DNA from: Eledone cirrhosa
Lineage: Eukaryota
NCBI GenBank assembly: GCA_964016885.1
Contig: OZ024760.1
Span: forward strand, 3,968,001-4,032,000
Reading direction: 5' to 3'
DNA length: 64,000 bases
Shown here: positions 6,101-64,000 of the stretch, in pieces
Layout of the letters: each line of letters starts with the position of its first letter
Position numbering within the stretch: position 1 is the first letter of the stretch
Translations under genes and position numbers: made by a program
Notes under the pieces: model-generated
Database searches by the model: none
Told to the model about the DNA's origin: nothing
The model's input: the letters and a program-made list of their open reading frames with translations, nothing else

Positions 6101-6616
6101 AAAACGTCTGAGCAGGTTGGTGAGACTCTTGCACCCTCCTTCCCTATCCACTAATCCCACACAATCCCAGCGTGCATCTAAGATCCCGTTCCAGTCGCCC
6201 ACTAACACTAAAGAGCGGGACGTTCCAAGAAAGGTCTCCAGACGCCGGAAGAAATCAGGCCGCCCTGCTCCTGTCGGGGCATAGACGGCCACTAACCTGA
6301 AAGCTTGCCCGTCTCCGCTGGTCACGTCCAGCACCACCAACTTACCTTCTGGGTCCAGGAAGATGGCCCGTATGGCAAGATCCAAACCTCTCCGAAAAAG
6401 CACAGCAACTCCTCCCCCCGATCCCGGACGGCTGGGAGATGCGTACACATCGTAGCCGCCGAAGATCGGTGCGAAAGCCTGTGCTTCGGAGATTCTGGTC
6501 TCGCTGATGGCCACTACATCCATGTTTAGTGACCTGAGGTCGTTGAGCAGGTGGCCCTGCTTCCATGACGACCCCAAGCCACGCGCATTTATGCTGCCTA
6601 TTCTGAGTGAGGTCAT
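3197..6616 (-). pseudogene. Tx1 ORF2: APE endonuclease + reverse transcriptase + C-terminal zinc finger, one frame with two in-frame stops
   Basis: Motifs SINARGL, ISET, VGDWN, YLDR, YTDH (APE); KSPGLDG, FRPITLLN, KAFDRV, RQGCPLS, YADD (RT); CSRC...ETVLHALVQC. ORF pieces 5354-6616, 4475-5272 and 3197-4471 share one frame. Stops at 5354-5356 (TAG) and 4475-4477 (TGA). Confidence 0.92.
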
Positions 6617-6650
6617 GTTGAAAAGGAGTGGAAAAGATGGGAAAGACCAC

Positions 6651-8785: not shown

Positions 8786-8842
<57 letters not shown>

Positions 8843-14000: not shown

Positions 14001-14297
14001 GGTCACGTCCAGCACCACCAACTTACCTTCTGGGTCCAGGAAGATGGCCCGTATGGCAAGATCCAAACCTCTCCGAAAAAGCACAGCAACTCCTCCCCCC
14101 GATCCCGGACGGCTGGGAGATGCGTACACATCGTAGCCGCCGAAGATCGGTGCGAAGGCCCGTGCTTCGGAGATTCTGGTCTCGCTGATGGCCACTACAT
14201 CTATGTTTAGTGACCTGAGGTCGTTGAGCAGGTGGCCCTGCTTCCATGACGACCCCAAGCCACGCGCATTTATGCTGCCTATTCTGAGTGAGGTCAT
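11003..14297 (-). pseudogene. Tx1 ORF2 (APE-RT), disrupted
   Basis: Same motifs as copy A, split over several frames. Deletions near 11790, 12650 and 13215 relative to copy A. Confidence 0.9.
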
Positions 14298-14332
14298 GTT
14301 TAAAATAGAGTGGAAAAGATGGGAAAGACCAC

Positions 14333-16436: not shown

Positions 16437-16671
16437 GTTGTTTTTTTGTTTAAAATAAATATTGGGCACAAAACCCCAATAAGCAGTTATTTAACCCCGA
16501 AGGGCCAAATAACGGGCAGAAAGACCCCTCTCACGAGGAGGAGGGTGTTTTTGTCTACAAGTTGGTTAAAGTTTTAAACAATTTACAATTGTTATAGCGG
16601 TCAAAATTTACAATACCTTACAGAGCCGAGCCTCCGTCAACCAAAGCATTCAATAATAATAATAATAATAA

Positions 16672-19282: not shown

Positions 19283-20097
19283 ATAAACGGAAAAATGAAA
19301 CGAAATTTCATTTCCCACTCTTAGTACGGCTGTTACTTAAATATAAGTATGTACACGTACATACATATATGTATACAGACGTACAGTAGTATGTATATAT
19401 ATATATACATACATGCATATATATATGTACGTATGGATTCACCGAACATTTATTATAATGCTCGGTGTGTTTGTTAACAAACATCCCGTATTAAGCCGTA
19501 GTGTCTAGCAACCATCGTTGCTCGTTTGTTCAACACTGACAAAGGAACACTGTACTAGTTTCAAGCTTATTAGCTATCGTCAGCAACGTATACCTTCCTG
19601 CCAGATTGTTGAACGTATATACTTACCTTATGCATATTAACGGCTGAGTAGCCCAATTTGCATATCGAGTGGGTTAATCGGCCGGGTGCACCGAAAACGA
19701 TAAACGGAAAAAATGAAACGAAATTTCATTTCCCACTCTTAGTACGGCTGTTACTTAAATATAAGTATGTACACGTATGTACATACATATATGTATACAG
19801 ACGTTAATATGCATAAGGTAAGTATATACGTTCAACAATCTGGCAGGAAGGTATACGTTGCTGACGATAGCTAATAAGCTTGAAACTAGTACAGTGTTCC
19901 TTTGTCAGTGTTGAACAAACGAGCAACGATGGTTGCTAGACACTAGGCTTAATACGGGATGTTTGTTTACAAACACACCGAGCATTATAATAAATGTTCG
20001 GTGAATCCATACGTACATATATATATGTGTGCATGTATGTATATATATATACATACTACTGTACATCTGAATACATATATGTATGTACGTGTACATA

Positions 20098-20100
<3 letters not shown>
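19283..20100. mobile_element. About 417-bp hammerhead-bearing repeat: one monomer plus a partial copy, then an inverted partial copy (homologue of the 470-bp array unit)
   Basis: ATAAACGGAAAAATGAAACGAAATTTC at 19283 and 19700. 19804-20100 is the reverse complement of about 19345-19641. HHR at 19548-19588 (-) and 19856-19896 (+). Confidence 0.8.
19856..19896 (+). ncRNA. Minimal type-I hammerhead ribozyme motif
   Basis: CGTTG CTGACGA TAGC TAATAA GCTT GAAA CTAG TA CAGTG; palindromic stem III ACTAGT. Confidence 0.7.
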
Positions 20101-20128
<28 letters not shown>

Positions 20129-20130
<2 letters not shown>

Positions 20131-21935
20131 AGGGCGGGTAAAATTCCCGAGATCCATGGACGAGTTCTCTCCAGCGGTCTCTGTCCCTCATTATCGCTGC
20201 CATGTCCTGCGTCTCCAACAGACCAGTGTCTGTCCTTAGGGCATCAATATACGTTAACCTTGGTCTTCCTCTTCTAGTGTGTCCATGTAGGGGCTCCCAA
20301 AGCAGCACTGAGTGCAATGTCAACTCTGGATGTCGGTGAGCATGTCCAGCTAACCTCAGTCTCCTCTGTGTCATTTTTGAGCTGACTCTTGGGAGGCTCC
20401 CATACAGCTCTGAGTTTTTCATCCTCAGTGTATACTGATTAATGTTCAGAGCCATCCTCAGCATTCTCGTGTAAACCCATCCACCATCTGAGTGAGTTTC
20501 TTGGTCAGTGTCCAAGTTTCAGACCCGCACAGCAGCACAGACTCCACTACAGCAATGAAGAGGCGGACCTTCGGGTCTTCATGAAGGTCCGACTTCCATA
20601 CCGATCTCAAGCACGCCGCCCAGGCTTTGCTCTTCCTCTCAACCACATCATCTTCCGTATTCCCAATCTTTGCTCCCAAATACAGGAAGTCCTCAACCAA
20701 TTCTAGCGGCTTCCCGCCTACATTAGTGATCCCTTCTGGCCTCTCAACATTCTCTACCAGATATTTTGTTTTAGTCTCATTCATTCTCAGCCCCAGACTC
20801 ATCGACACAGTCTCAACCTCCTGCATCAAATCCTCTGCCTCCTTCACTGTATTTGTCACCAAAATTATGTCGTCGGCAAATTCAGCATCTGATATCTTTT
20901 TCGCCTTAACTCTCCTGCTCTGAGCCGATGCTACAGTAAAGCCAGAGTCCTGGTGTTTCTCCAGTGCAAGGCGCATACAATAGTCCACTACGATGATAAA
21001 GAGGTAGGGAGCCAATGTATCTCCTTAGAGCACTCCAGCCAGTATCTCAAACAACGCTGTCATCCCATAAGGATCAATTCTATGCTGATCCTACGGAGGA
21101 GAGGATGGATACTGTGGAGGTGATGAGGGAAGAAGTCTGTACCGCTTACACTGAGGCCAGAGAGGAGGCAGTGATAGAGAAGATCAGAAGTGTGGAGAGC
21201 ACGGTTGACAGATCTGGATGTAAGGAGAGCTGGATGATCATCAACGAGATCACAGGGAGGAAGAGAAGGTGTTCGAGTCAGATTCAGGGAACAGGGCCCG
21301 AGGATAGGAAGAGGAAATAGCTAGACCATTTTAGGACCCTACTAGGAGAGCCATCCTCCACAGCCCAGAGCACTGGGGAGATTAGGCGGCTGTTTGAAGA
21401 ACTGGATATTGAAACAGAGCCCTTCACCAGAGAGGAGCTTCAGAGAGCTAAGAAGAAAATCAAGGAGGGCAAGGCTCATAGAGAAGATGGAGTGGCATCA
21501 GAGGTGATGAAGAGGTGTGATTTTGATGATATCATCCTGGGGTTCTGTAACCAAGTACTGGAGAAAGGAGTTGCCCCGAATCAGTGGAGGATCAGTAACA
21601 TCGTCCCAGTGCCAAAGAAGGGAGATCTCTCTAACACCAACAACTACAAGGGGATCTCACTGACGTCACTTGTGGCAAAGACCATCAACAGGATGATTCT
21701 TAACAGGATCCAGCCTGAGATGGAGAAGAAGCTCAGGGACAACCAGAACGGCTTCAGAGAGGGAAGATCAACCACCAGTCACATCCTGATGCTGAGGAGG
21801 ATATTAGAGGGAGCTAGAGCAAAGTGCCTTCCTGCGGTCATGGTTTTCATTGACTTTAGGAAGGCCTTTGATTCTGTGGACCGTCACTGCCTGATGAAGA
21901 TCTTCCAGGTTTATGGAATCCCCAAGAAGCTTAAG
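20129..21935 (-). mobile_element. RTE-clade non-LTR retrotransposon, 5'-truncated, with 5' inversion, in (TA)n
   Basis: Minus strand 20129-21068 encodes GVL*GDTLAPYLF, FADD, YLG, GSETW, GRPRLTYID. Plus strand 21069-21935 encodes the upstream RT part (IVPVPKKGD, NYKGISL, QNGFR, FIDFRKAFDSV, YGIPKKL). Confidence 0.88.
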
Positions 21936-21970
21936 TCATATGTATATATATGTATATGTATATATATATG

Positions 21971-22020
<50 letters not shown>

Positions 22021-22077
22021 TTTCGTTTCTGAATTTGTTTAGCAAGATTCTTTATCTGAAATCGTGTGTTGAAACCG

Positions 22078-23239
<1,162 letters not shown>

Positions 23240-23240
<1 letters not shown>

Positions 23241-23648
23241 GTAGGAGGTGAGTTTTATTGTAGTACAATAAAGCAATGCAGATATCGGATAAGAAGCACT
23301 CTACAGTTTGTAGGACTGGAGTATACATAATATATAAGAACAAAAGATGGTTAAAGGAGTTCCATGTATTTTATTATGCTCATTTCAAAAACAAATATCA
23401 TCATGCAATAATATTTGTGTTTTCATCAGATAAAACAGGAGGACATGATATGAAGGCTAAAAAACACTTGTGGATAGTGCAGTTATGTTGATTTAAAACT
23501 GCACTATCCACAAGTGTTTTTTTAGCCTTCATATCATGTCCTCCTGTTTTATCTGATGAAAACACAAATATTATTGCATGATGATATTTGTTTTTGAAAT
23601 GCGCATAATAAAATACATGGAACTCCTTTAACCATCTTTTGTTCTTAT
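23240..23648. mobile_element. Fold-back non-coding element with outward-facing hammerheads in (TA)n, copy 1
   Basis: Arms about 23332-23482 and 23499-23648. HHR 23548-23612 (+): TTTAT CTGATGA long stem II GAAA TGCGCA TA ATAAA, with a mirror on the minus strand. Confidence 0.8.
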
Positions 23649-23655
23649 ATATATG

Positions 23656-23710
<55 letters not shown>

Positions 23711-23745
23711 GTATATATATGTATATATATATGTATATATATATG

Positions 23746-23902
<157 letters not shown>

Positions 23903-23906
23903 GTAT

Positions 23907-24663
23907 ATAGTAGAATAATCGAGTATCGAAAAATCGGCGCACGAGTTCACGATAAACAAAATTCGAGATGAGCGGCAGAGGGCTCTATAATTCAAATAAA
24001 TTAGAGCTATAACTATCGTTAAAATACCGTCACACGTAGAATATGTCTACAATCAACCAAATAACCGAAAAGTTCGATATGGAAGATTCGGGACACTCAG
24101 ATAAATTATCAATAAATCAATAAATGAAATGAATGTAAAATGCAATATCTAGCTTCTTGGGTTTCTGTAAATCCTTAAACCGTCATCTATCAGCTCATAT
24201 AAAAATATAAGACTTACAGATAATCGTGGGACTGGAGTTACTTCATCAACGAGCTTCGTCCGAATGGATAAAAAGACAAGACCCAGGCTAAAAATACGCA
24301 CATGGATTTCAGCAAGGGAGATAACCTTTATATCCGCAAAAATATTCGGAAAAATGTGGCAAAAACACATATCGAATAAGAGTGCTCAATAGACATGTTA
24401 AAATAAACAGGGGCTATTCATCATTTAATAGAATCGACAAAAAATGAACAATAAAATTAACTGGTCAATATCTAAGTCTAGAGCTAAATATAGTAGAATA
24501 ATCGAGTATCGAAAAATCGACGCACGAGTTCACGATAAACAAAATTCGAGATGAGCGGCAGAGGGCTCTATAATTCAAATAAATTAGAGCTATAACTATC
24601 GTTAAAATACCGTCACACGTAGAATATGTCTACAATCAACCAAATAACCGAAAAGTTCGATAT
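23907..24663 (-). repeat. About 585-bp-period partial tandem non-coding element in (TA)n
   Basis: TAGTAGAATAATCGAGTATCG...AAGTTCGATATG occurs at 23907-24081 and 24491-24664. Homologous to 25820-26065, 48145-48485 and 48735-49160. Confidence 0.7.
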
Positions 24664-24664
24664 G

Positions 24665-24908
<244 letters not shown>

Positions 24909-25010
24909 TTTTATACTCTGCAATGTATTGAGTACCTTACTTACTGTGGTTACCTCCGATTCCACCCGGAATAACGTATATATATATATATATGTTTATA
25001 TATATATATG

Positions 25011-25041
<31 letters not shown>

Positions 25042-25134
25042 GTACATATATGTATATATATATGTATATATGTATATATATGTATATATATATGTATATA
25101 TATATATATGTATATGTATATATTTATATATATG

Positions 25135-25192
<58 letters not shown>

Positions 25193-25599
25193 TGTATATG
25201 ACCCCTTAGCCTTTGTCAAGGCAGAATTCTAGGAGAAGGAAAACTCTGATATAACACCTGCAACCCTGATGGTATCCAATGATGTTGACTTGTTCTTCTT
25301 TTTGGTAAATATCATCTTGGTTAAGAGAGTGGGACTGGCTTTGTGCAGTGCCTTTGCTCACTATAAAAGCTTCACGGCACAGGCATTGCTTTATATCTGG
25401 AGATCTCTCTGCACTTGTTGTCACATGGTACCATGGGCCCAGCACTATGTGTCAATAATTGTCACAAGTGTAGTCTTTGTACCAGAGTTTTCAAGTCGCT
25501 GGCTGGACTAAAAAGTCACACTTGTTCAGCGCATCGGTAGGGGTTCTCCTACATGGATATAAAGTAGTGGCCGTACTCGAAAACGAGTTGGCAGCCACC

Positions 25600-25707
<108 letters not shown>

Positions 25708-25819
25708 TTGTATATATATATGTATATATATATATGTATATATATATGTATATATATGTATATATATATGTATATATATATATGTATATATATATGTATA
25801 TATATATATGTATATATAT

Positions 25820-26065
25820 GGATTTTACCAACCTTCCAGGGGTCCGGGTAAATTTTCAATCACAGATATTTTTTATTTGTTTGACCCGAATTACTTGATC
25901 GTTTTTTTGGCTATGCGAATGATTGTTTAGCCATCGTCTCAGTGTGTTTGGCTTTTAACGTTTGTTATAGCTCTGGTTCATCTGAATCATTGAGCACTTG
26001 CCACACATCTCGGAAGTTGTTTTTTGTTATTTCGTGGGCCGAAATGTGATTCTCGATAATTTATA
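25820..26065 (+). mobile_element. 3' fragment of the 585-bp family element in (TA)n
   Basis: Closely similar to 48915-49160 (GGATTTTACCA..GGGGTCCG..TTGACCCGAATTACTTGATCG..TCGTGGGCCGAA..GATTCTCGATAATTT). Confidence 0.7.
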
Positions 26066-26073
26066 TGTATATA

Positions 26074-26276
<203 letters not shown>

Positions 26277-26343
26277 GTATATATATATATATGTATATAT
26301 ATATGTATATATATATGTATATATATATATGTATATATATATG

Positions 26344-26428
<85 letters not shown>

Positions 26429-26594
26429 GTATATATATATGTATATATATATATATATGTATATATATATGTATATATATGTATATATATATGTATATAT
26501 ATATATATGTATATATATATGTATATATATATATATGTATATATATGTATATATATATATGTATATATATGTATATATATATATGTATATATAT

Positions 26595-27025
26595 GTAGGA
26601 GGTGAGTTTTATTGTAGTACAATAAAGCAATGCAGATATCGGATAAGAAGCACTCTACAGTTTGTAGGACTGGAGTATACATAATATAAGATCAAAAGAT
26701 GGTTAAAGGAGTTCCATGTATTTTATTATGCGCATTTCAAAAACAAACATCATCATGCAATAATATTTGTGTTTTCATCAGATAAAACAGGAGAACATGA
26801 TATGAAGGCTAAAAAACACTTGTGGATAGTGCAGTTTTAAATCAACATATCATGATATGTTGATTTAAAACTGCACTATCCACAAGTGTTTTTTAGCCTT
26901 CATATCATGTTCTCCTGTTTTATCTGATGAAAACACAAATATTATTGCATGATGATGTTTGTTTTTGAAATGCGCATAATAAAATACATGGAACTCCTTT
27001 AACCATCTTTTGATCTTATATTATA
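26595..27025. mobile_element. Fold-back non-coding element with outward-facing hammerheads in (TA)n, copy 2
   Basis: Same sequence as 23240-23648 with a different hairpin apex (AACATATCATGATATGTT near 26844-26861). HHR cores at about 26720-26790 (-) and 26918-26985 (+). Confidence 0.8.
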
Positions 27026-33408: not shown

Positions 33409-35045
33409 TTAGGGAGAAGTGTTTAGACGGGGTCCGTATTTGTTAATGAAGTAAGATTCCTTGCTGATGCGCTGGGTGTGGGTGGCATTATCTTTAAATT
33501 TGTAGAGGGGAAAGATTCTGAAGTTGGGATGATTTTGGGCGGCACAGGTATCAATGTGTTCACTCAGTGGTATTTTCCTGTATTCCCGTATTTTAATTTG
33601 GGATCTATGGACAGTCATGCGTTGGCGGAGGCTGTTTTTGGTCTGGCCTATGTATTGTTCTCGACAACCTGAACAAGTTAATACATATATTAGATTTTCC
33701 GATGCACATGTGAAATTGTGTTTCACTATAAAACGTTGTCCATCTTTGAAATAGAATTCCGAACCCTCTATTAGGTTGATGCAAATGCCACAGTTGGGTC
33801 TATCGCATTTTTTTACTGTGGGTTTCGTTGTTGTGGTTGGCAGTACTTTGGCATGTGTTAGGATGTTTTTCATTGACTTGGATTGTCTTTTGCTCTTTAT
33901 GATATCGTGTGTTCGTAGAATTTGGTTCATTCTATGGTCCTTTTTCAACACAGGGATGTTCTGGAGGATGGTGTCAAAGGCCTCATTGTTGAGAGGGTTG
34001 TGTGTGGAGATGTATGGAAGGGCTTTTAGTTTCGGCTGATTTACTTTAGGGTCCTGGGTACTGAGTTTTAGGGCACGTTGGATTCCATTGTCAATTAGTG
34101 ATGCAGGGTAGTCCCTGCCTATGAGTGTGTCCTTTAGTTCTTGTAGCCGTAAGTAGCAGATGTTTTTATTGGAGACTATAGTACAGATTCTCTTGGCTAA
34201 GTTGTAGGGAATATTAATTTTAACATGTCTAGGGTGGCAAGAGTTGAAGGGGAGATATTGCTTGGAGTCTGTGGGCTTGTAGTATATGTCTGTTTCGATT
34301 TTTTTGTTATGGATCTTAATGAGGATGTCGAGGAAGGGGAGTTGTTGATGGCTGTATTCCATCGTGAAGTTAATATTCGTGTTGAGCCCATTTATAAGGG
34401 TGTGAAATTCTTTAAGTTTTTCGATGTTTTCGTGCCAAAGGATGAAGCAGTCATCTAGATATCGCTTCCAGTTCCTTTCAATGTGTAAGTGGAGGGTGTT
34501 TCCAAATTTGTTTAGGACTTTAGTGTAGAGGGTGATTTCCAGGTATCCCATGACTAGGTTGGCATAAGTGGGGGCTGTTTTCGTTCCCATAGCGGTCCCA
34601 GATGTCTGCCTGTAGGGTTTGTTATTGAAAACGAAGTAATTGTTCTCCAAGATAAATTTGAGTCCCTCTATCGCAAATTCTTTTTTGATGCGTTGTGGGA
34701 GTTCATTGTGGAAATTATCCAGCCAGAATTGGATAGCTTCTATTCCTAGGTTGTGGGGGATGTTGGAGTATAGGTTGACTACATCGAACGTCACTAGTAG
34801 GGTTTGTTCAGAAAGTTGCATATTAGGGAGGTGATTGAGCATATCTAAGTCGTCCCTTATATAGCTTTTGATGTGTTTGAGGAAGGGTTTGAGAAGGGTA
34901 TCAATGAAGTTGCTAAGACGGTGCGTTTCGCAAGCGGGGCCTGCTATTATAGGTCTTAATTTGAGATCATTGGGTGAGGGGACATTGATGACTATGTCTG
35001 TGGCTTCCTTGCATGCCTTACTTATTGATTCGCTTTTATGTACTT
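33409..35045 (-). CDS. Penelope-like element ORF: RT + GIY-YIG endonuclease, 5'-truncated, open frame of about 545 aa, flanked by (TA)n
   Basis: LRPIIAG, TFDVVNLYSNIPH, QTSGTAMG, RYLDDCF, LPFLD, YKPTD..QYL...SCHP, Cys linker CDRPNCGIC, NLIYVLTCSGCREQYIGQT, LRQRMTVH, E..FI.K..PRLN. Confidence 0.92.
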
Positions 35046-35136
35046 TATATATATATATATATTGCTTTGTGATTGATTGCCTCAAACAATTCGATTAGTA
35101 CCTGCTATATTGTGGCCACAACTTCGATTCATACCC

Positions 35137-45337: not shown

Positions 45338-45572
45338 TATAAGAGACGTAAAATAAGAAAATTATAAAATTAACTTACTTACTAAAATATCACTTCCAAC
45401 TAATTAGTTTCTGGAATGGAGTAAATATATTTTCCGAAATATAATATATTATTCTTCCGAAGAATAATATATTATTCTTCGGAAAATATATTTACTCCAT
45501 TCCAGAAACTAATTAGTTGGAAGTGATATTTTAGTAAGTAAGTTAATTTTATAATTTTCTTATTTTACGTCT

Positions 45573-45580
<8 letters not shown>
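45338..45580. repeat. Fold-back element (about 100-bp arms) next to (TA)n
   Basis: TATAAGAGACGTAAAATAAG...TTTTCCGAA and TTCGGAAAA...TTTTACGTCTCTTATA. Confidence 0.8.
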
Positions 45581-49165: not shown

Positions 49166-49344
49166 TACATATATATATATATATTATGGAATACTGTTGG
49201 CTTCTTGCTACAATACTTTCTATACCTTTCATTTATATATACATATATGTATGTACGTATACATACATACTTACATTTAAGTAAGTGCCGTACTAAGAGT
49301 GAGAAATGAAATTTCGTTTCATTCTATTCCATTTATATATATAT

Positions 49345-49586
49345 ATATTTATTTAAAGGTTAAACAAGGTTCAATGAATAAATCAAAGAATGAGTTTTAC
49401 AATAGATTGGAAGCACTCAACAAAAATGGTTTTCCGGAGTTATTAATATTAATTCAAAATATTAACAAAATAGATATTCTTGTGATCAAGTATATTTTAT
49501 TATACATATTTCAACCTCTGAAATATGTATAATAAAATATACTTGATCACAAGAATATCTATTTTGTTAATATTTTGAATTAATAT
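49345..49586. repeat. Fold-back element in (TA)n
   Basis: Arms about 49446-49505 and 49528-49586. Confidence 0.75.
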
Positions 49587-49660
49587 ATATATATTTATGT
49601 ATACATATATATATATTTATTTATGTATACATATATATATATATACATATACATATATAT

Positions 49661-52600
49661 ATAAAAACAAATAACGAAACGAAATTAAATTTCGTTTCGT
49701 TTGTAACTCACTTTTGTATGACTGACGCTCAAACAATTAAGTCAAAGATGTACATCCATATATGTATACTGAAATACTAGTATGTATATGAATACACAAA
49801 CGTATACATATGTAGATGTACCAAGTTTTTTTTTCACTGATCACTTTACTGTGAGTGGCCAGCTATTCTGTATGTAAACACACAGACAAACCGGTTTTTA
49901 GAGTCATACTGGTTTTTGAGGAAACATCTTTCCTCTATTCTCCAGAAAGCCAGACAAGGAATATTGAACTAGTTTCGTTGTTGTTACAACTCATCAGCAA
50001 TATTTACCTATCTTCCGGCCTCTCTAGAGAATCGTAAAAGCACATATCGCTATATGCTTTTTCTATGAAAATTAGTAGTGGGCAGACCAACTTGCATAGA
50101 GTGTGAGTAAGTACCGGTTCAACGGAGACGATAAAAACAAATAACGAAACGAAATTAAATTTCGTTTCGTTTGTAACTCACTTTTGTATGACTGACGCTC
50201 AAACAATTAAGTCAAAGATGTACATCCATATATGTATACTGAAATACTAGTATGTATATGAATACACAAACGTATACATATGTAGATGTACCAAGTTTTT
50301 TTTCACTGATCACTTTACTGTGAGTGGCCAGCTATTCTGTATGTAAACACACAGACAAACCGGTTTTTAGAGTCATACTGGTTTTTGAGGAAACATCTTT
50401 CCTCTATTCTCCAGAAAGCCAGACAAGGAATATTGAACTAGTTTCGTTGTTGTTACAACTCATCAGCAATATTTACCTATCTTCCGGCCTCTCTAGAGAA
50501 TCGTAAAAGCACATATCGCTATATGCTTTTTCTATGAAAATTAGTAGTGGGCAGACCAACTTGCATAGAGTGTGAGTAAGTACCGGTTCAACGGAGACGA
50601 TAAAAACAAATAACGAAACGAAATTAAATTTCGTTTCGTTTGTAACTCACTTTTGTATGACTGACGCTCAAACAATTAAGTCAAAGATGTACATCCATAT
50701 ATGTATACTGAAATACTAGTATGTATATGAATACACAAACGTATACATATGTAGATGTACCAAGTTTTTTTTTCACTGATCACTTTACTGTGAGTGGCCA
50801 GCTATTCTGTATGTAAACACACAGACAAACCGGTTTTTAGAGTCATACTGGTTTTTGAGGAAACATCTTTCCTCTATTCTCCAGAAAGCCAGACAAGGAA
50901 TATTGAACTAGTTTCGTTGTTGTTACAACTCATCAGCAATATTTACCTATCTTCCGGCCTCTCTAGAGAATCGTAAAAGCACATATCGCTATATGCTTTT
51001 TCTATGAAAATTAGTAGTGGGCAGACCAACTTGCATAGAGTGTGAGTAAGTACCGGTTCAACGGAGACGATAAAAACAAATAACGAAACGAAATTAAATT
51101 TCGTTTCGTTTGTAACTCACTTTTGTATGACTGACGCTCAAACAATTAAGTCAAAGATGTACATCCATATATGTATACTGAAATACTAGTATGTATATGA
51201 ATACACAAACGTATACATATGTAGATGTACCAAGTTTTTTTTTTCACTGATCACTTTACTGTGAGTGGCCAGCTATTCTGTATGTAAACACACAGACAAA
51301 CCGGTTTTTAGAGTCATACTGGTTTTTGAGGAAACATCTTTCCTCTATTCTCCAGAAAGCCAGACAAGGAATATTGAACTAGTTTCGTTGTTGTTACAAC
51401 TCATCAGCAATATTTACCTATCTTCCGGCCTCTCTAGAGAATCGTAAAAGCACATATCGCTATATGCTTTTTCTATGAAAATTAGTAGTGGGCAGACCAA
51501 CTTGCATAGAGTGTGAGTAAGTACCGGTTCAACGGAGACGATAAAAACAAATAACGAAACGAAATTAAATTTCGTTTCGTTTGTAACTCACTTTTGTATG
51601 ACTGACGCTCAAACAATTAAGTCAAAGATGTACATCCATATATGTATACTGAAATACTAGTATGTATATGAATACACAAACGTATACATATGTAGATGTA
51701 CCAAGTTTTTTTTTCACTGATCACTTTACTGTGAGTGGCCAGCTATTCTGTATGTAAACACACAGACAAACCGGTTTTTAGAGTCATACTGGTTTTTGAG
51801 GAAACATCTTTCCTCTATTCTCCAGAAAGCCAGACAAGGAATATTGAACTAGTTTCGTTGTTGTTACAACTCATCAGCAATATTTACCTATCTTCCGGCC
51901 TCTCTAGAGAATCGTAAAAGCACATATCGCTATATGCTTTTTCTATGAAAATTAGTAGTGGGCAGACCAACTTGCATAGAGTGTGAGTAAGTACCGGTTC
52001 AACGGAGACGATAAAAACAAATAACGAAACGAAATTAAATTTCGTTTCGTTTGTAACTCACTTTTGTATGACTGACGCTCAAACAATTAAGTCAAAGATG
52101 TACATCCATATATGTATACTGAAATACTAGTATGTATATGAATACACAAACGTATACATATGTAGATGTACCAAGTTTTTTTTTCACTGATCACTTTACT
52201 GTGAGTGGCCAGCTATTCTGTATGTAAACACACAGACAAACCGGTTTTTAGAGTCATACTGGTTTTTGAGGAAACATCTTTCCTCTATTCTCCAGAAAGC
52301 CAGACAAGGAATATTGAACTAGTTTCGTTGTTGTTACAACTCATCAGCAATATTTACCTATCTTCCGGCCTCTCTAGAGAATCGTAAAAGCACATATCGC
52401 TATATGCTTTTTCTATGAAAATTAGTAGTGGGCAGACCAACTTGCATAGAGTGTGAGTAAGTACCGGTTCAACGGAGACGATAAAAACAAATAACGAAAC
52501 GAAATTAAATTTCGTTTCGTTTGTAACTCACTTTTGTATGACTGACGCTCAAACAATTAAGTCAAAGATGTACATCCATATATGTATACTGAAATACTAG

Positions 52601-55600
52601 TATGTATATGAATACACAAACGTATACATATGTAGATGTACCAAGTTTTTTTTTCACTGATCACTTTACTGTGAGTGGCCAGCTATTCTGTATGTAAACA
52701 CACAGACAAACCGGTTTTTAGAGTCATACTGGTTTTTGAGGAAACATCTTTCCTCTATTCTCCAGAAAGCCAGACAAGGAATATTGAACTAGTTTCGTTG
52801 TTGTTACAACTCATCAGCAATATTTACCTATCTTCCGGCCTCTCTAGAGAATCGTAAAAGCACATATCGCTATATGCTTTTTCTATGAAAATTAGTAGTG
52901 GGCAGACCAACTTGCATAGAGTGTGAGTAAGTACCGGTTCAACGGAGACGATAAAAACAAATAACGAAACGAAATTAAATTTCGTTTCGTTTGTAACTCA
53001 CTTTTGTATGACTGACGCTCAAACAATTAAGTCAAAGATGTACATCCATATATGTATACTGAAATACTAGTATGTATATGAATACACAAACGTATACATA
53101 TGTAGATGTACCAAGTTTTTTTTTTCACTGATCACTTTACTGTGAGTGGCCAGCTATTCTGTATGTAAACACACAGACAAACCGGTTTTTAGAGTCATAC
53201 TGGTTTTTGAGGAAACATCTTTCCTCTATTCTCCAGAAAGCCAGACAAGGAATATTGAACTAGTTTCGTTGTTGTTACAACTCATCAGCAATATTTACCT
53301 ATCTTCCGGCCTCTCTAGAGAATCGTAAAAGCACATATCGCTATATGCTTTTTCTATGAAAATTAGTAGTGGGCAGACCAACTTGCATAGAGTGTGAGTA
53401 AGTACCGGTTCAACGGAGACGATAAAAACAAATAACGAAACGAAATTAAATTTCGTTTCGTTTGTAACTCACTTTTGTATGACTGACGCTCAAACAATTA
53501 AGTCAAAGATGTACATCCATATATGTATACTGAAATACTAGTATGTATATGAATACACAAACGTATACATATGTAGATGTACCAAGTTTTTTTTTCACTG
53601 ATCACTTTACTGTGAGTGGCCAGCTATTCTGTATGTAAACACACAGACAAACCGGTTTTTAGAGTCATACTGGTTTTTGAGGAAACATCTTTCCTCTATT
53701 CTCCAGAAAGCCAGACAAGGAATATTGAACTAGTTTCGTTGTTGTTACAACTCATCAGCAATATTTACCTATCTTCCGGCCTCTCTAGAGAATCGTAAAA
53801 GCACATATCGCTATATGCTTTTTCTATGAAAATTAGTAGTGGGCAGACCAACTTGCATAGAGTGTGAGTAAGTACCGGTTCAACGGAGACGATAAAAACA
53901 AATAACGAAACGAAATTAAATTTCGTTTCGTTTGTAACTCACTTTTGTATGACTGACGCTCAAACAATTAAGTCAAAGATGTACATCCATATATGTATAC
54001 TGAAATACTAGTATGTATATGAATACACAAACGTATACATATGTAGATGTACCAAGTTTTTTTTTCACTGATCACTTTACTGTGAGTGGCCAGCTATTCT
54101 GTATGTAAACACACAGACAAACCGGTTTTTAGAGTCATACTGGTTTTTGAGGAAACATCTTTCCTCTATTCTCCAGAAAGCCAGACAAGGAATATTGAAC
54201 TAGTTTCGTTGTTGTTACAACTCATCAGCAATATTTACCTATCTTCCGGCCTCTCTAGAGAATCGTAAAAGCACATATCGCTATATGCTTTTTCTATGAA
54301 AATTAGTAGTGGGCAGACCAACTTGCATAGAGTGTGAGTAAGTACCGGTTCAACGGAGACGATAAAAACAAATAACGAAACGAAATTAAATTTCGTTTCG
54401 TTTGTAACTCACTTTTGTATGACTGACGCTCAAACAATTAAGTCAAAGATGTACATCCATATATGTATACTGAAATACTAGTATGTATATGAATACACAA
54501 ACGTATACATATGTAGATGTACCAAGTTTTTTTTTCACTGATCACTTTACTGTGAGTGGCCAGCTATTCTGTATGTAAACACACAGACAAACCGGTTTTT
54601 AGAGTCATACTGGTTTTTGAGGAAACATCTTTCCTCTATTCTCCAGAAAGCCAGACAAGGAATATTGAACTAGTTTCGTTGTTGTTACAACTCATCAGCA
54701 ATATTTACCTATCTTCCGGCCTCTCTAGAGAATCGTAAAAGCACATATCGCTATATGCTTTTTCTATGAAAATTAGTAGTGGGCAGACCAACTTGCATAG
54801 AGTGTGAGTAAGTACCGGTTCAACGGAGACGATAAAAACAAATAACGAAACGAAATTAAATTTCGTTTCGTTTGTAACTCACTTTTGTATGACTGACGCT
54901 CAAACAATTAAGTCAAAGATGTACATCCATATATGTATACTGAAATACTAGTATGTATATGAATACACAAACGTATACATATGTAGATGTACCAAGTTTT
55001 TTTTTCACTGATCACTTTACTGTGAGTGGCCAGCTATTCTGTATGTAAACACACAGACAAACCGGTTTTTAGAGTCATACTGGTTTTTGAGGAAACATCT
55101 TTCCTCTATTCTCCAGAAAGCCAGACAAGGAATATTGAACTAGTTTCGTTGTTGTTACAACTCATCAGCAATATTTACCTATCTTCCGGCCTCTCTAGAG
55201 AATCGTAAAAGCACATATCGCTATATGCTTTTTCTATGAAAATTAGTAGTGGGCAGACCAACTTGCATAGAGTGTGAGTAAGTACCGGTTCAACGGAGAC
55301 GATAAAAACAAATAACGAAACGAAATTAAATTTCGTTTCGTTTGTAACTCACTTTTGTATGACTGACGCTCAAACAATTAAGTCAAAGATGTACATCCAT
55401 ATATGTATACTGAAATACTAGTATGTATATGAATACACAAACGTATACATATGTAGATGTACCAAGTTTTTTTTTCACTGATCACTTTACTGTGAGTGGC
55501 CAGCTATTCTGTATGTAAACACACAGACAAACCGGTTTTTAGAGTCATACTGGTTTTTGAGGAAACATCTTTCCTCTATTCTCCAGAAAGCCAGACAAGG

Positions 55601-57141
55601 AATATTGAACTAGTTTCGTTGTTGTTACAACTCATCAGCAATATTTACCTATCTTCCGGCCTCTCTAGAGAATCGTAAAAGCACATATCGCTATATGCTT
55701 TTTCTATGAAAATTAGTAGTGGGCAGACCAACTTGCATAGAGTGTGAGTAAGTACCGGTTCAACGGAGACGATAAAAACAAATAACGAAACGAAATTAAA
55801 TTTCGTTTCGTTTGTAACTCACTTTTGTATGACTGACGCTCAAACAATTAAGTCAAAGATGTACATCCATATATGTATACTGAAATACTAGTATGTATAT
55901 GAATACACAAACGTATACATATGTAGATGTACCAAGTTTTTTTTTCACTGATCACTTTACTGTGAGTGGCCAGCTATTCTGTATGTAAACACACAGACAA
56001 ACCGGTTTTTAGAGTCATACTGGTTTTTGAGGAAACATCTTTCCTCTATTCTCCAGAAAGCCAGACAAGGAATATTGAACTAGTTTCGTTGTTGTTACAA
56101 CTCATCAGCAATATTTACCTATCTTCCGGCCTCTCTAGAGAATCGTAAAAGCACATATCGCTATATGCTTTTTCTATGAAAATTAGTAGTGGGCAGACCA
56201 ACTTGCATAGAGTGTGAGTAAGTACCGGTTCAACGGAGACGATAAAAACAAATAACGAAACGAAATTAAATTTCGTTTCGTTTGTAACTCACTTTTGTAT
56301 GACTGACGCTCAAACAATTAAGTCAAAGATGTACATCCATATATGTATACTGAAATACTAGTATGTATATGAATACACAAACGTATACATATGTAGATGT
56401 ACCAAGTTTTTTTTTCACTGATCACTTTACTGTGAGTGGCCAGCTATTCTGTATGTAAACACACAGACAAACCGGTTTTTAGAGTCATACTGGTTTTTGA
56501 GGAAACATCTTTCCTCTATTCTCCAGAAAGCCAGACAAGGAATATTGAACTAGTTTCGTTGTTGTTACAACTCATCAGCAATATTTACCTATCTTCCGGC
56601 CTCTCTAGAGAATCGTAAAAGCACATATCGCTATATGCTTTTTCTATGAAAATTAGTAGTGGGCAGACCAACTTGCATAGAGTGTGAGTAAGTACCGGTT
56701 CAACGGAGACGATAAAAACAAATAACGAAACGAAATTAAATTTCGTTTCGTTTGTAACTCACTTTTGTATGACTGACGCTCAAACAATTAAGTCAAAGAT
56801 GTACATCCATATATGTATACTGAAATACTAGTATGTATATGAATACACAAACGTATACATATGTAGATGTACCAAGTTTTTTTTTCACTGATCACTTTAC
56901 TGTGAGTGGCCAGCTATTCTGTATGTAAACACACAGACAAACCGGTTTTTAGAGTCATACTGGTTTTTGAGGAAACATCTTTCCTCTATTCTCCAGAAAG
57001 CCAGACAAGGAATATTGAACTAGTTTCGTTGTTGTTACAACTCATCAGCAATATTTACCTATCTTCCGGCCTCTCTAGAGAATCGTAAAAGCACATATCG
57101 CTATATGCTTTTTCTATGAAAATTAGTAGTGGGCAGACCAA
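49661..57141 (-). repeat. 470-bp tandem array, left arm (about 16 monomers); hammerhead on the minus strand
   Basis: Unit starts ATAAAAACAAATAACGAAACG at 49661, 50131, 50600 and so on. The only differences seen are T8-T10 homopolymer lengths. Confidence 0.97.
49960..50004 (-). ncRNA. Minimal type-I hammerhead ribozyme (first of 16 in the left arm)
   Basis: Reverse complement AATATTG CTGATGA GTTG TAACAA CAAC GAAA CTAG TT CAATATT. Confidence 0.85.
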
Positions 57142-60100
57142 CTGCCCACTACTAATTTTCATAGAAAAAGCATATAGCGATATGTGCTTTTACGATTCTC
57201 TAGAGAGGCCGGAAGATAGGTAAATATTGCTGATGAGTTGTAACAACAACGAAACTAGTTCAATATTCCTTGTCTGGCTTTCTGGAGAATAGAGGAAAGA
57301 TGTTTCCTCAAAAACCAGTATGACTCTAAAAACCGGTTTGTCTGTGTGTTTACATACAGAATAGCTGGCCACTCACAGTAAAGTGATCAGTGAAAAAAAA
57401 ACTTGGTACATCTACATATGTATACGTTTGTGTATTCATATACATACTAGTATTTCAGTATACATATATGGATGTACATCTTTGACTTAATTGTTTGAGC
57501 GTCAGTCATACAAAAGTGAGTTACAAACGAAACGAAATTTAATTTCGTTTCGTTATTTGTTTTTATCGTCTCCGTTGAACCGGTACTTACTCACACTCTA
57601 TGCAAGTTGGTCTGCCCACTACTAATTTTCATAGAAAAAGCATATAGCGATATGTGCTTTTACGATTCTCTAGAGAGGCCGGAAGATAGGTAAATATTGC
57701 TGATGAGTTGTAACAACAACGAAACTAGTTCAATATTCCTTGTCTGGCTTTCTGGAGAATAGAGGAAAGATGTTTCCTCAAAAACCAGTATGACTCTAAA
57801 AACCGGTTTGTCTGTGTGTTTACATACAGAATAGCTGGCCACTCACAGTAAAGTGATCAGTGAAAAAAAAACTTGGTACATCTACATATGTATACGTTTG
57901 TGTATTCATATACATACTAGTATTTCAGTATACATATATGGATGTACATCTTTGACTTAATTGTTTGAGCGTCAGTCATACAAAAGTGAGTTACAAACGA
58001 AACGAAATTTAATTTCGTTTCGTTATTTGTTTTTATCGTCTCCGTTGAACCGGTACTTACTCACACTCTATGCAAGTTGGTCTGCCCACTACTAATTTTC
58101 ATAGAAAAAGCATATAGCGATATGTGCTTTTACGATTCTCTAGAGAGGCCGGAAGATAGGTAAATATTGCTGATGAGTTGTAACAACAACGAAACTAGTT
58201 CAATATTCCTTGTCTGGCTTTCTGGAGAATAGAGGAAAGATGTTTCCTCAAAAACCAGTATGACTCTAAAAACCGGTTTGTCTGTGTGTTTACATACAGA
58301 ATAGCTGGCCACTCACAGTAAAGTGATCAGTGAAAAAAAAACTTGGTACATCTACATATGTATACGTTTGTGTATTCATATACATACTAGTATTTCAGTA
58401 TACATATATGGATGTACATCTTTGACTTAATTGTTTGAGCGTCAGTCATACAAAAGTGAGTTACAAACGAAACGAAATTTAATTTCGTTTCGTTATTTGT
58501 TTTTATCGTCTCCGTTGAACCGGTACTTACTCACACTCTATGCAAGTTGGTCTGCCCACTACTAATTTTCATAGAAAAAGCATATAGCGATATGTGCTTT
58601 TACGATTCTCTAGAGAGGCCGGAAGATAGGTAAATATTGCTGATGAGTTGTAACAACAACGAAACTAGTTCAATATTCCTTGTCTGGCTTTCTGGAGAAT
58701 AGAGGAAAGATGTTTCCTCAAAAACCAGTATGACTCTAAAAACCGGTTTGTCTGTGTGTTTACATACAGAATAGCTGGCCACTCACAGTAAAGTGATCAG
58801 TGAAAAAAAAACTTGGTACATCTACATATGTATACGTTTGTGTATTCATATACATACTAGTATTTCAGTATACATATATGGATGTACATCTTTGACTTAA
58901 TTGTTTGAGCGTCAGTCATACAAAAGTGAGTTACAAACGAAACGAAATTTAATTTCGTTTCGTTATTTGTTTTTATCGTCTCCGTTGAACCGGTACTTAC
59001 TCACACTCTATGCAAGTTGGTCTGCCCACTACTAATTTTCATAGAAAAAGCATATAGCGATATGTGCTTTTACGATTCTCTAGAGAGGCCGGAAGATAGG
59101 TAAATATTGCTGATGAGTTGTAACAACAACGAAACTAGTTCAATATTCCTTGTCTGGCTTTCTGGAGAATAGAGGAAAGATGTTTCCTCAAAAACCAGTA
59201 TGACTCTAAAAACCGGTTTGTCTGTGTGTTTACATACAGAATAGCTGGCCACTCACAGTAAAGTGATCAGTGAAAAAAAAACTTGGTACATCTACATATG
59301 TATACGTTTGTGTATTCATATACATACTAGTATTTCAGTATACATATATGGATGTACATCTTTGACTTAATTGTTTGAGCGTCAGTCATACAAAAGTGAG
59401 TTACAAACGAAACGAAATTTAATTTCGTTTCGTTATTTGTTTTTATCGTCTCCGTTGAACCGGTACTTACTCACACTCTATGCAAGTTGGTCTGCCCACT
59501 ACTAATTTTCATAGAAAAAGCATATAGCGATATGTGCTTTTACGATTCTCTAGAGAGGCCGGAAGATAGGTAAATATTGCTGATGAGTTGTAACAACAAC
59601 GAAACTAGTTCAATATTCCTTGTCTGGCTTTCTGGAGAATAGAGGAAAGATGTTTCCTCAAAAACCAGTATGACTCTAAAAACCGGTTTGTCTGTGTGTT
59701 TACATACAGAATAGCTGGCCACTCACAGTAAAGTGATCAGTGAAAAAAAAACTTGGTACATCTACATATGTATACGTTTGTGTATTCATATACATACTAG
59801 TATTTCAGTATACATATATGGATGTACATCTTTGACTTAATTGTTTGAGCGTCAGTCATACAAAAGTGAGTTACAAACGAAACGAAATTTAATTTCGTTT
59901 CGTTATTTGTTTTTATCGTCTCCGTTGAACCGGTACTTACTCACACTCTATGCAAGTTGGTCTGCCCACTACTAATTTTCATAGAAAAAGCATATAGCGA
60001 TATGTGCTTTTACGATTCTCTAGAGAGGCCGGAAGATAGGTAAATATTGCTGATGAGTTGTAACAACAACGAAACTAGTTCAATATTCCTTGTCTGGCTT

Positions 60101-63100
60101 TCTGGAGAATAGAGGAAAGATGTTTCCTCAAAAACCAGTATGACTCTAAAAACCGGTTTGTCTGTGTGTTTACATACAGAATAGCTGGCCACTCACAGTA
60201 AAGTGATCAGTGAAAAAAAAACTTGGTACATCTACATATGTATACGTTTGTGTATTCATATACATACTAGTATTTCAGTATACATATATGGATGTACATC
60301 TTTGACTTAATTGTTTGAGCGTCAGTCATACAAAAGTGAGTTACAAACGAAACGAAATTTAATTTCGTTTCGTTATTTGTTTTTATCGTCTCCGTTGAAC
60401 CGGTACTTACTCACACTCTATGCAAGTTGGTCTGCCCACTACTAATTTTCATAGAAAAAGCATATAGCGATATGTGCTTTTACGATTCTCTAGAGAGGCC
60501 GGAAGATAGGTAAATATTGCTGATGAGTTGTAACAACAACGAAACTAGTTCAATATTCCTTGTCTGGCTTTCTGGAGAATAGAGGAAAGATGTTTCCTCA
60601 AAAACCAGTATGACTCTAAAAACCGGTTTGTCTGTGTGTTTACATACAGAATAGCTGGCCACTCACAGTAAAGTGATCAGTGAAAAAAAAACTTGGTACA
60701 TCTACATATGTATACGTTTGTGTATTCATATACATACTAGTATTTCAGTATACATATATGGATGTACATCTTTGACTTAATTGTTTGAGCGTCAGTCATA
60801 CAAAAGTGAGTTACAAACGAAACGAAATTTAATTTCGTTTCGTTATTTGTTTTTATCGTCTCCGTTGAACCGGTACTTACTCACACTCTATGCAAGTTGG
60901 TCTGCCCACTACTAATTTTCATAGAAAAAGCATATAGCGATATGTGCTTTTACGATTCTCTAGAGAGGCCGGAAGATAGGTAAATATTGCTGATGAGTTG
61001 TAACAACAACGAAACTAGTTCAATATTCCTTGTCTGGCTTTCTGGAGAATAGAGGAAAGATGTTTCCTCAAAAACCAGTATGACTCTAAAAACCGGTTTG
61101 TCTGTGTGTTTACATACAGAATAGCTGGCCACTCACAGTAAAGTGATCAGTGAAAAAAAAACTTGGTACATCTACATATGTATACGTTTGTGTATTCATA
61201 TACATACTAGTATTTCAGTATACATATATGGATGTACATCTTTGACTTAATTGTTTGAGCGTCAGTCATACAAAAGTGAGTTACAAACGAAACGAAATTT
61301 AATTTCGTTTCGTTATTTGTTTTTATCGTCTCCGTTGAACCGGTACTTACTCACACTCTATGCAAGTTGGTCTGCCCACTACTAATTTTCATAGAAAAAG
61401 CATATAGCGATATGTGCTTTTACGATTCTCTAGAGAGGCCGGAAGATAGGTAAATATTGCTGATGAGTTGTAACAACAACGAAACTAGTTCAATATTCCT
61501 TGTCTGGCTTTCTGGAGAATAGAGGAAAGATGTTTCCTCAAAAACCAGTATGACTCTAAAAACCGGTTTGTCTGTGTGTTTACATACAGAATAGCTGGCC
61601 ACTCACAGTAAAGTGATCAGTGAAAAAAAAACTTGGTACATCTACATATGTATACGTTTGTGTATTCATATACATACTAGTATTTCAGTATACATATATG
61701 GATGTACATCTTTGACTTAATTGTTTGAGCGTCAGTCATACAAAAGTGAGTTACAAACGAAACGAAATTTAATTTCGTTTCGTTATTTGTTTTTATCGTC
61801 TCCGTTGAACCGGTACTTACTCACACTCTATGCAAGTTGGTCTGCCCACTACTAATTTTCATAGAAAAAGCATATAGCGATATGTGCTTTTACGATTCTC
61901 TAGAGAGGCCGGAAGATAGGTAAATATTGCTGATGAGTTGTAACAACAACGAAACTAGTTCAATATTCCTTGTCTGGCTTTCTGGAGAATAGAGGAAAGA
62001 TGTTTCCTCAAAAACCAGTATGACTCTAAAAACCGGTTTGTCTGTGTGTTTACATACAGAATAGCTGGCCACTCACAGTAAAGTGATCAGTGAAAAAAAA
62101 ACTTGGTACATCTACATATGTATACGTTTGTGTATTCATATACATACTAGTATTTCAGTATACATATATGGATGTACATCTTTGACTTAATTGTTTGAGC
62201 GTCAGTCATACAAAAGTGAGTTACAAACGAAACGAAATTTAATTTCGTTTCGTTATTTGTTTTTATCGTCTCCGTTGAACCGGTACTTACTCACACTCTA
62301 TGCAAGTTGGTCTGCCCACTACTAATTTTCATAGAAAAAGCATATAGCGATATGTGCTTTTACGATTCTCTAGAGAGGCCGGAAGATAGGTAAATATTGC
62401 TGATGAGTTGTAACAACAACGAAACTAGTTCAATATTCCTTGTCTGGCTTTCTGGAGAATAGAGGAAAGATGTTTCCTCAAAAACCAGTATGACTCTAAA
62501 AACCGGTTTGTCTGTGTGTTTACATACAGAATAGCTGGCCACTCACAGTAAAGTGATCAGTGAAAAAAAACTTGGTACATCTACATATGTATACGTTTGT
62601 GTATTCATATACATACTAGTATTTCAGTATACATATATGGATGTACATCTTTGACTTAATTGTTTGAGCGTCAGTCATACAAAAGTGAGTTACAAACGAA
62701 ACGAAATTTAATTTCGTTTCGTTATTTGTTTTTATCGTCTCCGTTGAACCGGTACTTACTCACACTCTATGCAAGTTGGTCTGCCCACTACTAATTTTCA
62801 TAGAAAAAGCATATAGCGATATGTGCTTTTACGATTCTCTAGAGAGGCCGGAAGATAGGTAAATATTGCTGATGAGTTGTAACAACAACGAAACTAGTTC
62901 AATATTCCTTGTCTGGCTTTCTGGAGAATAGAGGAAAGATGTTTCCTCAAAAACCAGTATGACTCTAAAAACCGGTTTGTCTGTGTGTTTACATACAGAA
63001 TAGCTGGCCACTCACAGTAAAGTGATCAGTGAAAAAAAAACTTGGTACATCTACATATGTATACGTTTGTGTATTCATATACATACTAGTATTTCAGTAT

Positions 63101-64000
63101 ACATATATGGATGTACATCTTTGACTTAATTGTTTGAGCGTCAGTCATACAAAAGTGAGTTACAAACGAAACGAAATTTAATTTCGTTTCGTTATTTGTT
63201 TTTATCGTCTCCGTTGAACCGGTACTTACTCACACTCTATGCAAGTTGGTCTGCCCACTACTAATTTTCATAGAAAAAGCATATAGCGATATGTGCTTTT
63301 ACGATTCTCTAGAGAGGCCGGAAGATAGGTAAATATTGCTGATGAGTTGTAACAACAACGAAACTAGTTCAATATTCCTTGTCTGGCTTTCTGGAGAATA
63401 GAGGAAAGATGTTTCCTCAAAAACCAGTATGACTCTAAAAACCGGTTTGTCTGTGTGTTTACATACAGAATAGCTGGCCACTCACAGTAAAGTGATCAGT
63501 GAAAAAAAAACTTGGTACATCTACATATGTATACGTTTGTGTATTCATATACATACTAGTATTTCAGTATACATATATGGATGTACATCTTTGACTTAAT
63601 TGTTTGAGCGTCAGTCATACAAAAGTGAGTTACAAACGAAACGAAATTTAATTTCGTTTCGTTATTTGTTTTTATCGTCTCCGTTGAACCGGTACTTACT
63701 CACACTCTATGCAAGTTGGTCTGCCCACTACTAATTTTCATAGAAAAAGCATATAGCGATATGTGCTTTTACGATTCTCTAGAGAGGCCGGAAGATAGGT
63801 AAATATTGCTGATGAGTTGTAACAACAACGAAACTAGTTCAATATTCCTTGTCTGGCTTTCTGGAGAATAGAGGAAAGATGTTTCCTCAAAAACCAGTAT
63901 GACTCTAAAAACCGGTTTGTCTGTGTGTTTACATACAGAATAGCTGGCCACTCACAGTAAAGTGATCAGTGAAAAAAAAACTTGGTACATCTACATATGT
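57142..64000 (+). repeat. 470-bp tandem array, inverted right arm (at least 14.6 monomers, runs off the window); hammerhead on the plus strand
   Basis: Reverse complement of the left-arm unit; apex AGTAGTGGGCAG-ACCAA-CTGCCCACTACT. Confidence 0.97.
57223..57267 (+). ncRNA. Minimal type-I hammerhead ribozyme (first of 15 visible in the right arm)
   Basis: 7-bp stem I AATATTG/CAATATT, core CTGATGA, stem II GTTG/CAAC, GAAA, palindromic stem III AACTAGTT; predicted cleavage after GUU at 57260. Confidence 0.85.

Follow-up and report, generated by a model that had tools for sequence, protein, structure and literature searches.

Retrozymes and Penelope-Like Elements

Type I hammerhead ribozymes that act as dimers are carried by newt satellite 2 and by Sm-alpha of Schistosoma. 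Retrozymes are an already described class (PMC7229834; bioRxiv 10.64898/2026.07.22.740005), for which both papers, in their accessible parts, leave open the mobilising enzyme and the question of whether arrays arise by rolling-circle reverse transcription or by local amplification. The synthesis of tandem cDNA on circular templates by LINEs or Penelope-like elements (PLEs) is put forward purely as a hypothesis (PMC7229834). The recent preprint describes arrays formed via local amplification, links retrozymes to pLTRs with the mechanism left open, and reports cleavage in one of nine dimers (bioRxiv 10.64898/2026.07.22.740005).

According to earlier descriptions, a PLE insertion comprises a truncated copy inverted head to head, a tail on one side and target duplications of 8-10 bp (PMC3846280; PMC8557442). 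The tail, for which lengths of 30-40 bp have been reported, lies between two internal reverse-transcription start sites (PMC11167929). For the PLE studied by Frangieh et al. (PMC11167929), cleavage is unnecessary and unprocessed RNA is the main substrate.

The repeat considered here occupies part of the window, the whole stretch of 64,000 nucleotides of Eledone cirrhosa DNA that was analysed. Judged by its sequence, it is a new non-LTR retrozyme family, hence of a known class, with cleavage predicted from sequence and fold. As in other animal non-LTR retrozymes, the units are non-coding, low in GC, arranged in tandem and equipped with one type I hammerhead each; the insertions are dispersed and flanked by duplications of more than 4 bp, and PLEs reside in the same genome. 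The units are moreover self-paired, and their GC content lies below 50%. The retrozyme reading given in the preliminary description is supported. The unit length of 470 nt is above the 170-400 nt range of PMC7229834 and inside the 51-972 nt range of the preprint (bioRxiv 10.64898/2026.07.22.740005). In contrast to the preprint's retrozymes, which show pLTR homology, the unit has none to NepA, the single PLE family with which it was compared. Inverted arms, fixed ends, a tail and chimeras are found here and are undescribed for retrozymes in the accessible parts of PMC7229834 and of the 2026 preprint. A description of inverted, two-ended retrozyme arrays was not found in the literature, although supplements, subscription papers and Repbase may hold the family or the layout; likewise, nothing pertinent was found there on a hammerhead tandem-repeat satellite of Octopus or on Penelope twin priming with inversion.

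The Repeat Unit and its Hammerhead

TRF delimits two arrays of 470-bp units with 99% matches, one of 15.9 copies at 49661-57143 and one of 14.6 copies at 57142-64000. Type I hammerheads number 31 in the window, of which the minus strand carries 16 (49997-57048) and the plus strand 15 (57230-63809), so that the hammerhead per monomer claimed earlier, with its 31 copies, was recovered in all 31 cases by TRF and motif search together. Among the complete units 25 of 29 are identical, and the remaining four vary solely in one A-run.

The first hammerhead of the right arm (57223..57267, plus strand) was identified by motif search, Rfam and the fold of two units. Its stem I pairs 57223-57229 with 57261-57267, the core lies at 57230-57236, stem II at 57237-57250 and the GAAA at 57251-57254, while stem III is palindromic. 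The GUU triplet is placed at 57258-57260, in agreement with the cut formerly predicted after 57260. Stem II allows two readings, 5 bp closed by a 4-nt loop and 4 bp closed by a 6-nt loop. The ribozyme resembles the dimer-acting type I hammerheads of metazoans, with a helix I of 6-7 bp, a helix II of 4-5 bp and a helix III of 2 bp whose loop is palindromic (PMC4209133), and differs from them in that the youngest subfamily carries GUU. At minimum energy, a transcript of two units folds into a double hammerhead, in which the stems I are crossed and both palindromic stems III are paired; cleavage as a dimer fits this predicted fold. The comparison with Rfam bears out the ribozyme in part: Hammerhead_HH9 matches over the full model with an E of 1e-7, but its 37.7 bits are under the gathering score of 52, which no hammerhead within the window reaches. 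The further Rfam matches besides HH9 are AT-rich hairpin noise.

The reference unit (57260..57729, plus strand), whose position 1 is window 57260, is non-coding, has about 35% GC and is highly self-paired. Its fold has a z of -9.65, which none of 100 shuffles equals, and its longest stop-free frame is 60 codons. An ORF for reverse transcriptase (RT) and GIY-YIG endonuclease, by which an autonomous PLE would be recognised, is absent from the 470-bp unit.

Across locus consensuses, with subfamilies at 85-100% identity, the core, the GAAA and stem III are invariant. One pair of stem II has changed in a compensatory manner: of the 456 units, 357 have U-A, 98 have A-U and 1 is mismatched; as related copies are counted many times, the swap may represent one or two events. 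The divergence of the motif as a whole (3/44, against 54/350 elsewhere) is not significant alone (p 0.17). Conservation of the hammerhead across subfamilies is borne out by the invariant parts and by stem II, and not by the divergence of the entire motif. The tail segment described below differs from the oldest subfamily at 3 of 75 bases, against 54/350 elsewhere (p 0.008); the array compared had been selected for its hammerhead. The triplet is GUU, the weaker one, in the youngest subfamily and GUC in the older ones.

Two further features of the unit were observed. An octamer-like motif lies at window ~57600-57632 (unit 341-373), is present as an exact ATGCAAAT in older subfamilies and in the second family described below, and is followed by a conserved block; it may mark a promoter of snRNA type, as in newt satellite 2. 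In addition, one contig of run X1, a run of unknown kind, at a depth of 18.6 of ~120,000, skips 91 nt (57426-57516) with GT..AG ends, which would delete the short start site; this contig was given no weight.

Related Hammerhead Families

A second, homologous hammerhead family has a CUGACGA core and a GUA triplet, the same palindromic stem III and the same or nearly the same loop 2. It occurs at window 19285-20100 and at L032 2180-3070, likewise in a two-armed layout with a long and a short end. Its ends are in register with those of the retrozyme; the alignment scores 167, and none of 300 shuffles exceeds 95. A fragment of its 3' end is also seen at window 49230-49335.

TA repeat harbours at least five further families of type I hammerheads, several of which form inverted pairs, at window 17296, 23429-26924 and 45810 and at L031, L032, L033, L038, L043, L045, L048 and L049. 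New insertions settle in the TA sequence beside older insertions. The window also contains LINE-type RT and endonuclease frames, some of them nested (3197-8141, 8842-10650, 11003-16490 and 20129-22166), and a tRNA-like match at 1481-1551.

Organization of the Insertion in the Window

The preliminary description treated the arrays as a satellite. The strands of the hammerheads, 16 minus and 15 plus, show, however, that the arrays diverge from a junction at 57142/3, and they are instead the two inverted arms of one insertion, which belongs to a dispersed family with fixed ends. The left arm (49661..57143, minus strand) comprises 15.9 units and 16 hammerheads, and its outer 3' end lies at unit 307, the "long" end. 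The right arm (57142..64000, plus strand) has 15 hammerheads visible in the window; the array runs 1,012 bp past the window end, and the arm stops at window-equivalent 65012, after 16.7 units, at unit 232, the "short" end. The insertion totals 15,352 bp. At the head-to-head junction (57142..57143) the 5'-truncated arms meet at unit positions 346 and 353, with an overlap of 2 nt.

The part of the unit that the two fixed arm ends enclose (positions 233-307; 57492..57566 on the plus strand) corresponds to a PLE-type tail, and its edges, at unit 233 and 307, are inferred to be the start sites of reverse transcription. A copy of the tail forms the outer end of the left arm (49661..49735, minus strand), and the end of the right arm is without it. 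The insertion is bounded by a target-site duplication, with the left copy at 49652..49660 (plus strand) and the right copy beginning at window-equivalent 65013; it is 9 nt long where unambiguous and 14 nt if bases common to the element end are counted. The target is a microsatellite of (TA)n type (49583..49660), and both arms abut TA repeat. Sequence shared by the two flanks was considered as a long duplication and rejected, as it derives from other hammerhead families. Inverted duplications are present in the flanking sequence at 45345-45580 and 49445-49590.

A Dispersed Family with Fixed Ends

Exact junctions of the long end with (AT) repeat number at least 2,062 genome-wide and family hammerheads 9,201, each against 0 in the control. 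Matches to the unit amount to 273 in the 22 scored of 365 candidates. The count for the short end (889 forward, 1,705 reverse) is not a clean number, since repeats of one site overlap.

The 76 insertions classified comprise 26 chosen by unit identity, 39 chosen by the long end on contig C1 and 11 chosen by the short end or the hammerhead; the 39 come from the first 40 long-end sites, of which one duplicate was dropped and one was merged with a longer stretch, and one locus held two. A long and a short end are combined in 51 of the 76, a further four pair the long end with a short-end stub, 12 have the long end only and four the short end only, three are cut by the stretch or a gap, and two are of other kinds. 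Where both ends of a two-armed insertion are visible, 51 of 53 terminate at unit ~307 and 232-237, and pairs of two long or two short retrozyme ends were found in 0 of these 53, nor do they occur in the remainder of the 76. Loci chosen irrespective of their ends give 21 long-and-short insertions out of 26. Among 12 extra short-end loci, seven are long-and-short, two carry a long-end stub and three are one-armed.

TA flanks both sides in 49 of the 53 two-armed insertions. Target duplications measure about 8-14 nt in the flanks that can be read, whereas 29 of 50 flanks consist of pure TA and are uninformative; clear cases are L082, L049, L047, L101, L160 and L169. The central junctions (n=51) are scattered along the whole unit and show overlaps of 1-9 nt in 23 cases, blunt joins in seven, inserts in 16 and longer overlaps in five. 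The median arm is ~600 bp in the unbiased sample. Arm lengths show no correlation (rho -0.16 and 0.13), and young insertions do not significantly exceed old ones in length (p 0.12). Identical ends followed by AT repeat also occur in contigs of another public run of unknown kind.

Loci L151 and L152 (C1, 55.97 and 55.99 Mb) share the same insertion and flank 17.7 kb apart, as a segmental or an assembly duplicate, and one of them was dropped from the counts. Locus L153 (C1, 56.2 Mb) lacks a second arm and has in its place 36 nt that duplicate, in inverted form, the flank on the other side of the TA repeat.

A Penelope-Like Footprint

Judged by its layout, the fixed pairing of a long and a short end with an inverted arm is the PLE footprint of an inverted copy plus tail. 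The insertions share with the endonuclease-bearing PLEs described so far the head-to-head inverted and 5'-truncated copy, the tail at one end, the duplications, the AT-rich or (TA)n targets and the delimitation of the tail by two internal RT start sites, which are putative here. They are unlike them in that the retrozyme has no ORF, both arms are multi-unit arrays and the tail, at ~74-75 nt, exceeds the 30-40 bp of PLEs. The pairing of one long with one short end is strict here, whereas the tail is described as optional for PLEs, and the PLE of Frangieh et al. (PMC11167929) synthesises strands in vitro without a difference in start site.

Direct joins with a PLE were found in 2 of 88 retrozyme insertions. 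At L140 an inverted piece of retrozyme, 40 nt long, connects the long arm of an old-subfamily retrozyme to the interior of the RT frame in an arm of the PLE family NepA, and the NepA arm stops at the short end of NepA. At L042 a young retrozyme arm of 13 units is fused to the 3' UTR of NepA, both ends being long. Both chimeras could stem from deletion between neighbours, and no further ones occurred among the 11 and 12 loci chosen by short end or hammerhead. A PLE of a second family beside L136 (57% to NepA) is read as a nested insertion and not as a chimera, because TA repeat separates it from the retrozyme.

Mobilisation in trans by an endonuclease-bearing PLE is thus very likely, and the Penelope RT proposed in the preliminary description gains from the dispersal, the fixed ends of PLE type, the duplications, the (TA)n target and the PLE chimeras. 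A related case is offered by the non-autonomous PLEs of Chlamys, such as MRC1, which are likewise non-coding parasites of PLEs and have multicopy head-to-tail insertions (PMC8557442). These, however, are without canonical hammerheads and resemble their helper at the 3' end, whereas the retrozyme carries a hammerhead and does not match NepA, its candidate helper.

The candidate helper is NepA itself, for which the case is about evenly balanced. A 5'-truncated copy with RT and GIY-YIG is present in the window as a separate insertion (33409..35094, minus strand). The family is young: the 86 copies scored, of 47,738 candidates, stand at 98-100%, many with an open frame of 784 aa. All 10 NepA insertions with both ends visible, from 36 stretches scanned, have one short and one long end. 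Neptune and Nematis are marked by a C-terminal GIY-YIG preceded by a CX2-5CxxC linker (PMC8557442); NepA carries a CX4CxxC linker upstream of GIY-YIG in its translation and is assigned by this motif to the Neptune/Nematis type, without a choice between the two. The NepA unit is 4,734 bp long, and one pattern scan of it found no canonical hammerhead. Compared with 30 NepA loci, the retrozyme unit gave no match beyond TA-rich sequence, and when the end regions of the two were aligned, 239 of 300 shuffles aligned equally well. At L086 and L087 (C5, 17.09 Mb) a NepA frame of 455 codons lies upstream of the 784-codon RT-EN frame, and the two may be joined by splicing; such a two-frame unit without a canonical hammerhead is unusual for a PLE with a C-terminal endonuclease.

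Origin of the Arrays

The explanation that covers these observations, and that we hold to be likely as a whole, is that of a young non-LTR retrozyme mobilised in trans by a PLE, with the arms copied round an RNA circle. A read-through RNA would be cut by dimeric hammerheads into 470-nt units, which a host ligase would circularise. The PLE protein would then cut (TA)n on both strands with a stagger of ~12 nt, and each DNA end would serve as a primer for copying the retrozyme RNA into cDNA, from unit ~307 at one end and from ~233 at the other. By circling its template several times the RT would make the arms multimeric from birth; the two cDNA ends would meet head to head, often via microhomology, and some arms would afterwards expand or shrink locally.

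The circular template on its own is somewhat favoured, and the evidence lies in the substitutions. Off-modal substitutions fill every covering unit at 11 of 25 young loci, in both arms at 10 of these, and variants confined to a subset of units occur at four of the 25. In the window, two off-modal bases are each present in 33 of 33 units, and no substitution distinguishes the units. Locus-specific bases in all units imply a bottleneck of a single unit followed by re-multimerisation, and rolling-circle copying of one RNA circle, which would supply both in one step, is favoured by this pattern. The pattern is not proof, because a homogeneous donor array would give the same daughter and an assembly may smooth its units. 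Unit positions 25-28 carry recurrent single-unit substitutions at many loci, a hotspot of mutation or of RT error. A cleaved linear monomer is excluded as template, since most arms cross the cleavage site and 5' ends do not pile up there (3 of 106 arms, about chance). Two RTs moving in lock-step on one circle were also rejected, as the arm lengths do not fit.

Alternatively, short PLE-type insertions of one or two units per arm might have grown later by unequal crossing-over or slippage, so that the 16+17 units of the window would be post-insertion. Periodic linked variants, of period 2-4, in two large old arrays that each have one tiny arm (C1:5.74 Mb, ~30.5 + 0.7 units; C1:14.04 Mb, ~14.7 + 0.5 units) point to local expansion there also, and the unbiased median arm length given above suits such growth. 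As a general origin it is nevertheless unlikely: in a set biased toward long arrays, young arms cross at least two cleavage sites in 18 of 21 long-end and 19 of 21 short-end cases, the arms share almost no variants, and a window without substitution in 33 units would require that both arms expanded separately and very recently.

A PLE twin-primed insertion from an uncleaved, linear and multimeric read-through transcript, with a hammerhead that is slow or acts elsewhere, is a still less probable source. It would account equally well for the ends, for the duplications and for the fact that 5' ends are lacking at the cleavage site, and the GUU triplet of the youngest copies and the uptake of unprocessed RNA by PAc in vitro (PMC11167929) agree with it. 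From such a template, however, new substitutions would be expected in single units, against the excess of all-unit over subset substitutions noted above; the former would still require a one-unit bottleneck and re-multimerisation somewhere, and the window would demand 16 intact hammerheads within one template.

The second arm could also be a DNA fold-back copy of the first, through the self-priming proposed for PLE palindromes (PMC3846280). Junctions symmetric to within 5 nt are found in 6 of 51 insertions against 1.25 expected (p 0.0016), and that of the window is symmetric to within 15 nt. Most junctions are asymmetric, however, chimeric arms derive from two templates, and the longer arm is the short-end one in 20 of 51 insertions and the long-end one in 26, while a copy cannot outrun its template. 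Because either arm may be the longer, fold-back is rejected as a general rule and is very unlikely as the explanation, though it may apply to the symmetric minority of junctions.

That the arrays are an ordinary satellite or an assembly artefact with a hammerhead by chance, as the sub-gathering Rfam score and the risk that near-identical units are over-homogenised or miscounted might suggest, is of negligible probability in view of insertions that number thousands, are dispersed and show fixed ends and duplications, of the compensatory change in stem II, of the homologous second family of the same layout and of the same ends in contigs from another run. This reading is rejected for the family, the exact unit count at the window's locus being that of the assembly.

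Within the circular-template reading, a stronger version is tentative: every array would arise at full length in a single event, in which a PLE dimer would cut (TA)n and copy one circle from two fixed sites, one for each DNA end, with up to ~16 laps per arm; the helper would read the shape of the RNA, without a canonical hammerhead of its own or a sequence match.

Implications

The insertion footprints make the open mechanism of retrozymes testable and provide unusually direct genomic evidence. They also bear on the open question of why PLEs produce copies that are inverted and carry a tail on one side. Since two start sites, a helper candidate with intact frames and a 470-nt substrate are available, the in vitro assay of PMC11167929 suits all of these questions. 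Developers of gene-writing tools would take an interest in an RT able to turn a small circle into kilobases of tandem cDNA inserted in (TA)n. If arrays are indeed born in a single event of this kind, they would record retrozyme mobilisation directly for the first time, and the tail and inversion of PLEs would be explained as the outcome of obligatory twin priming.
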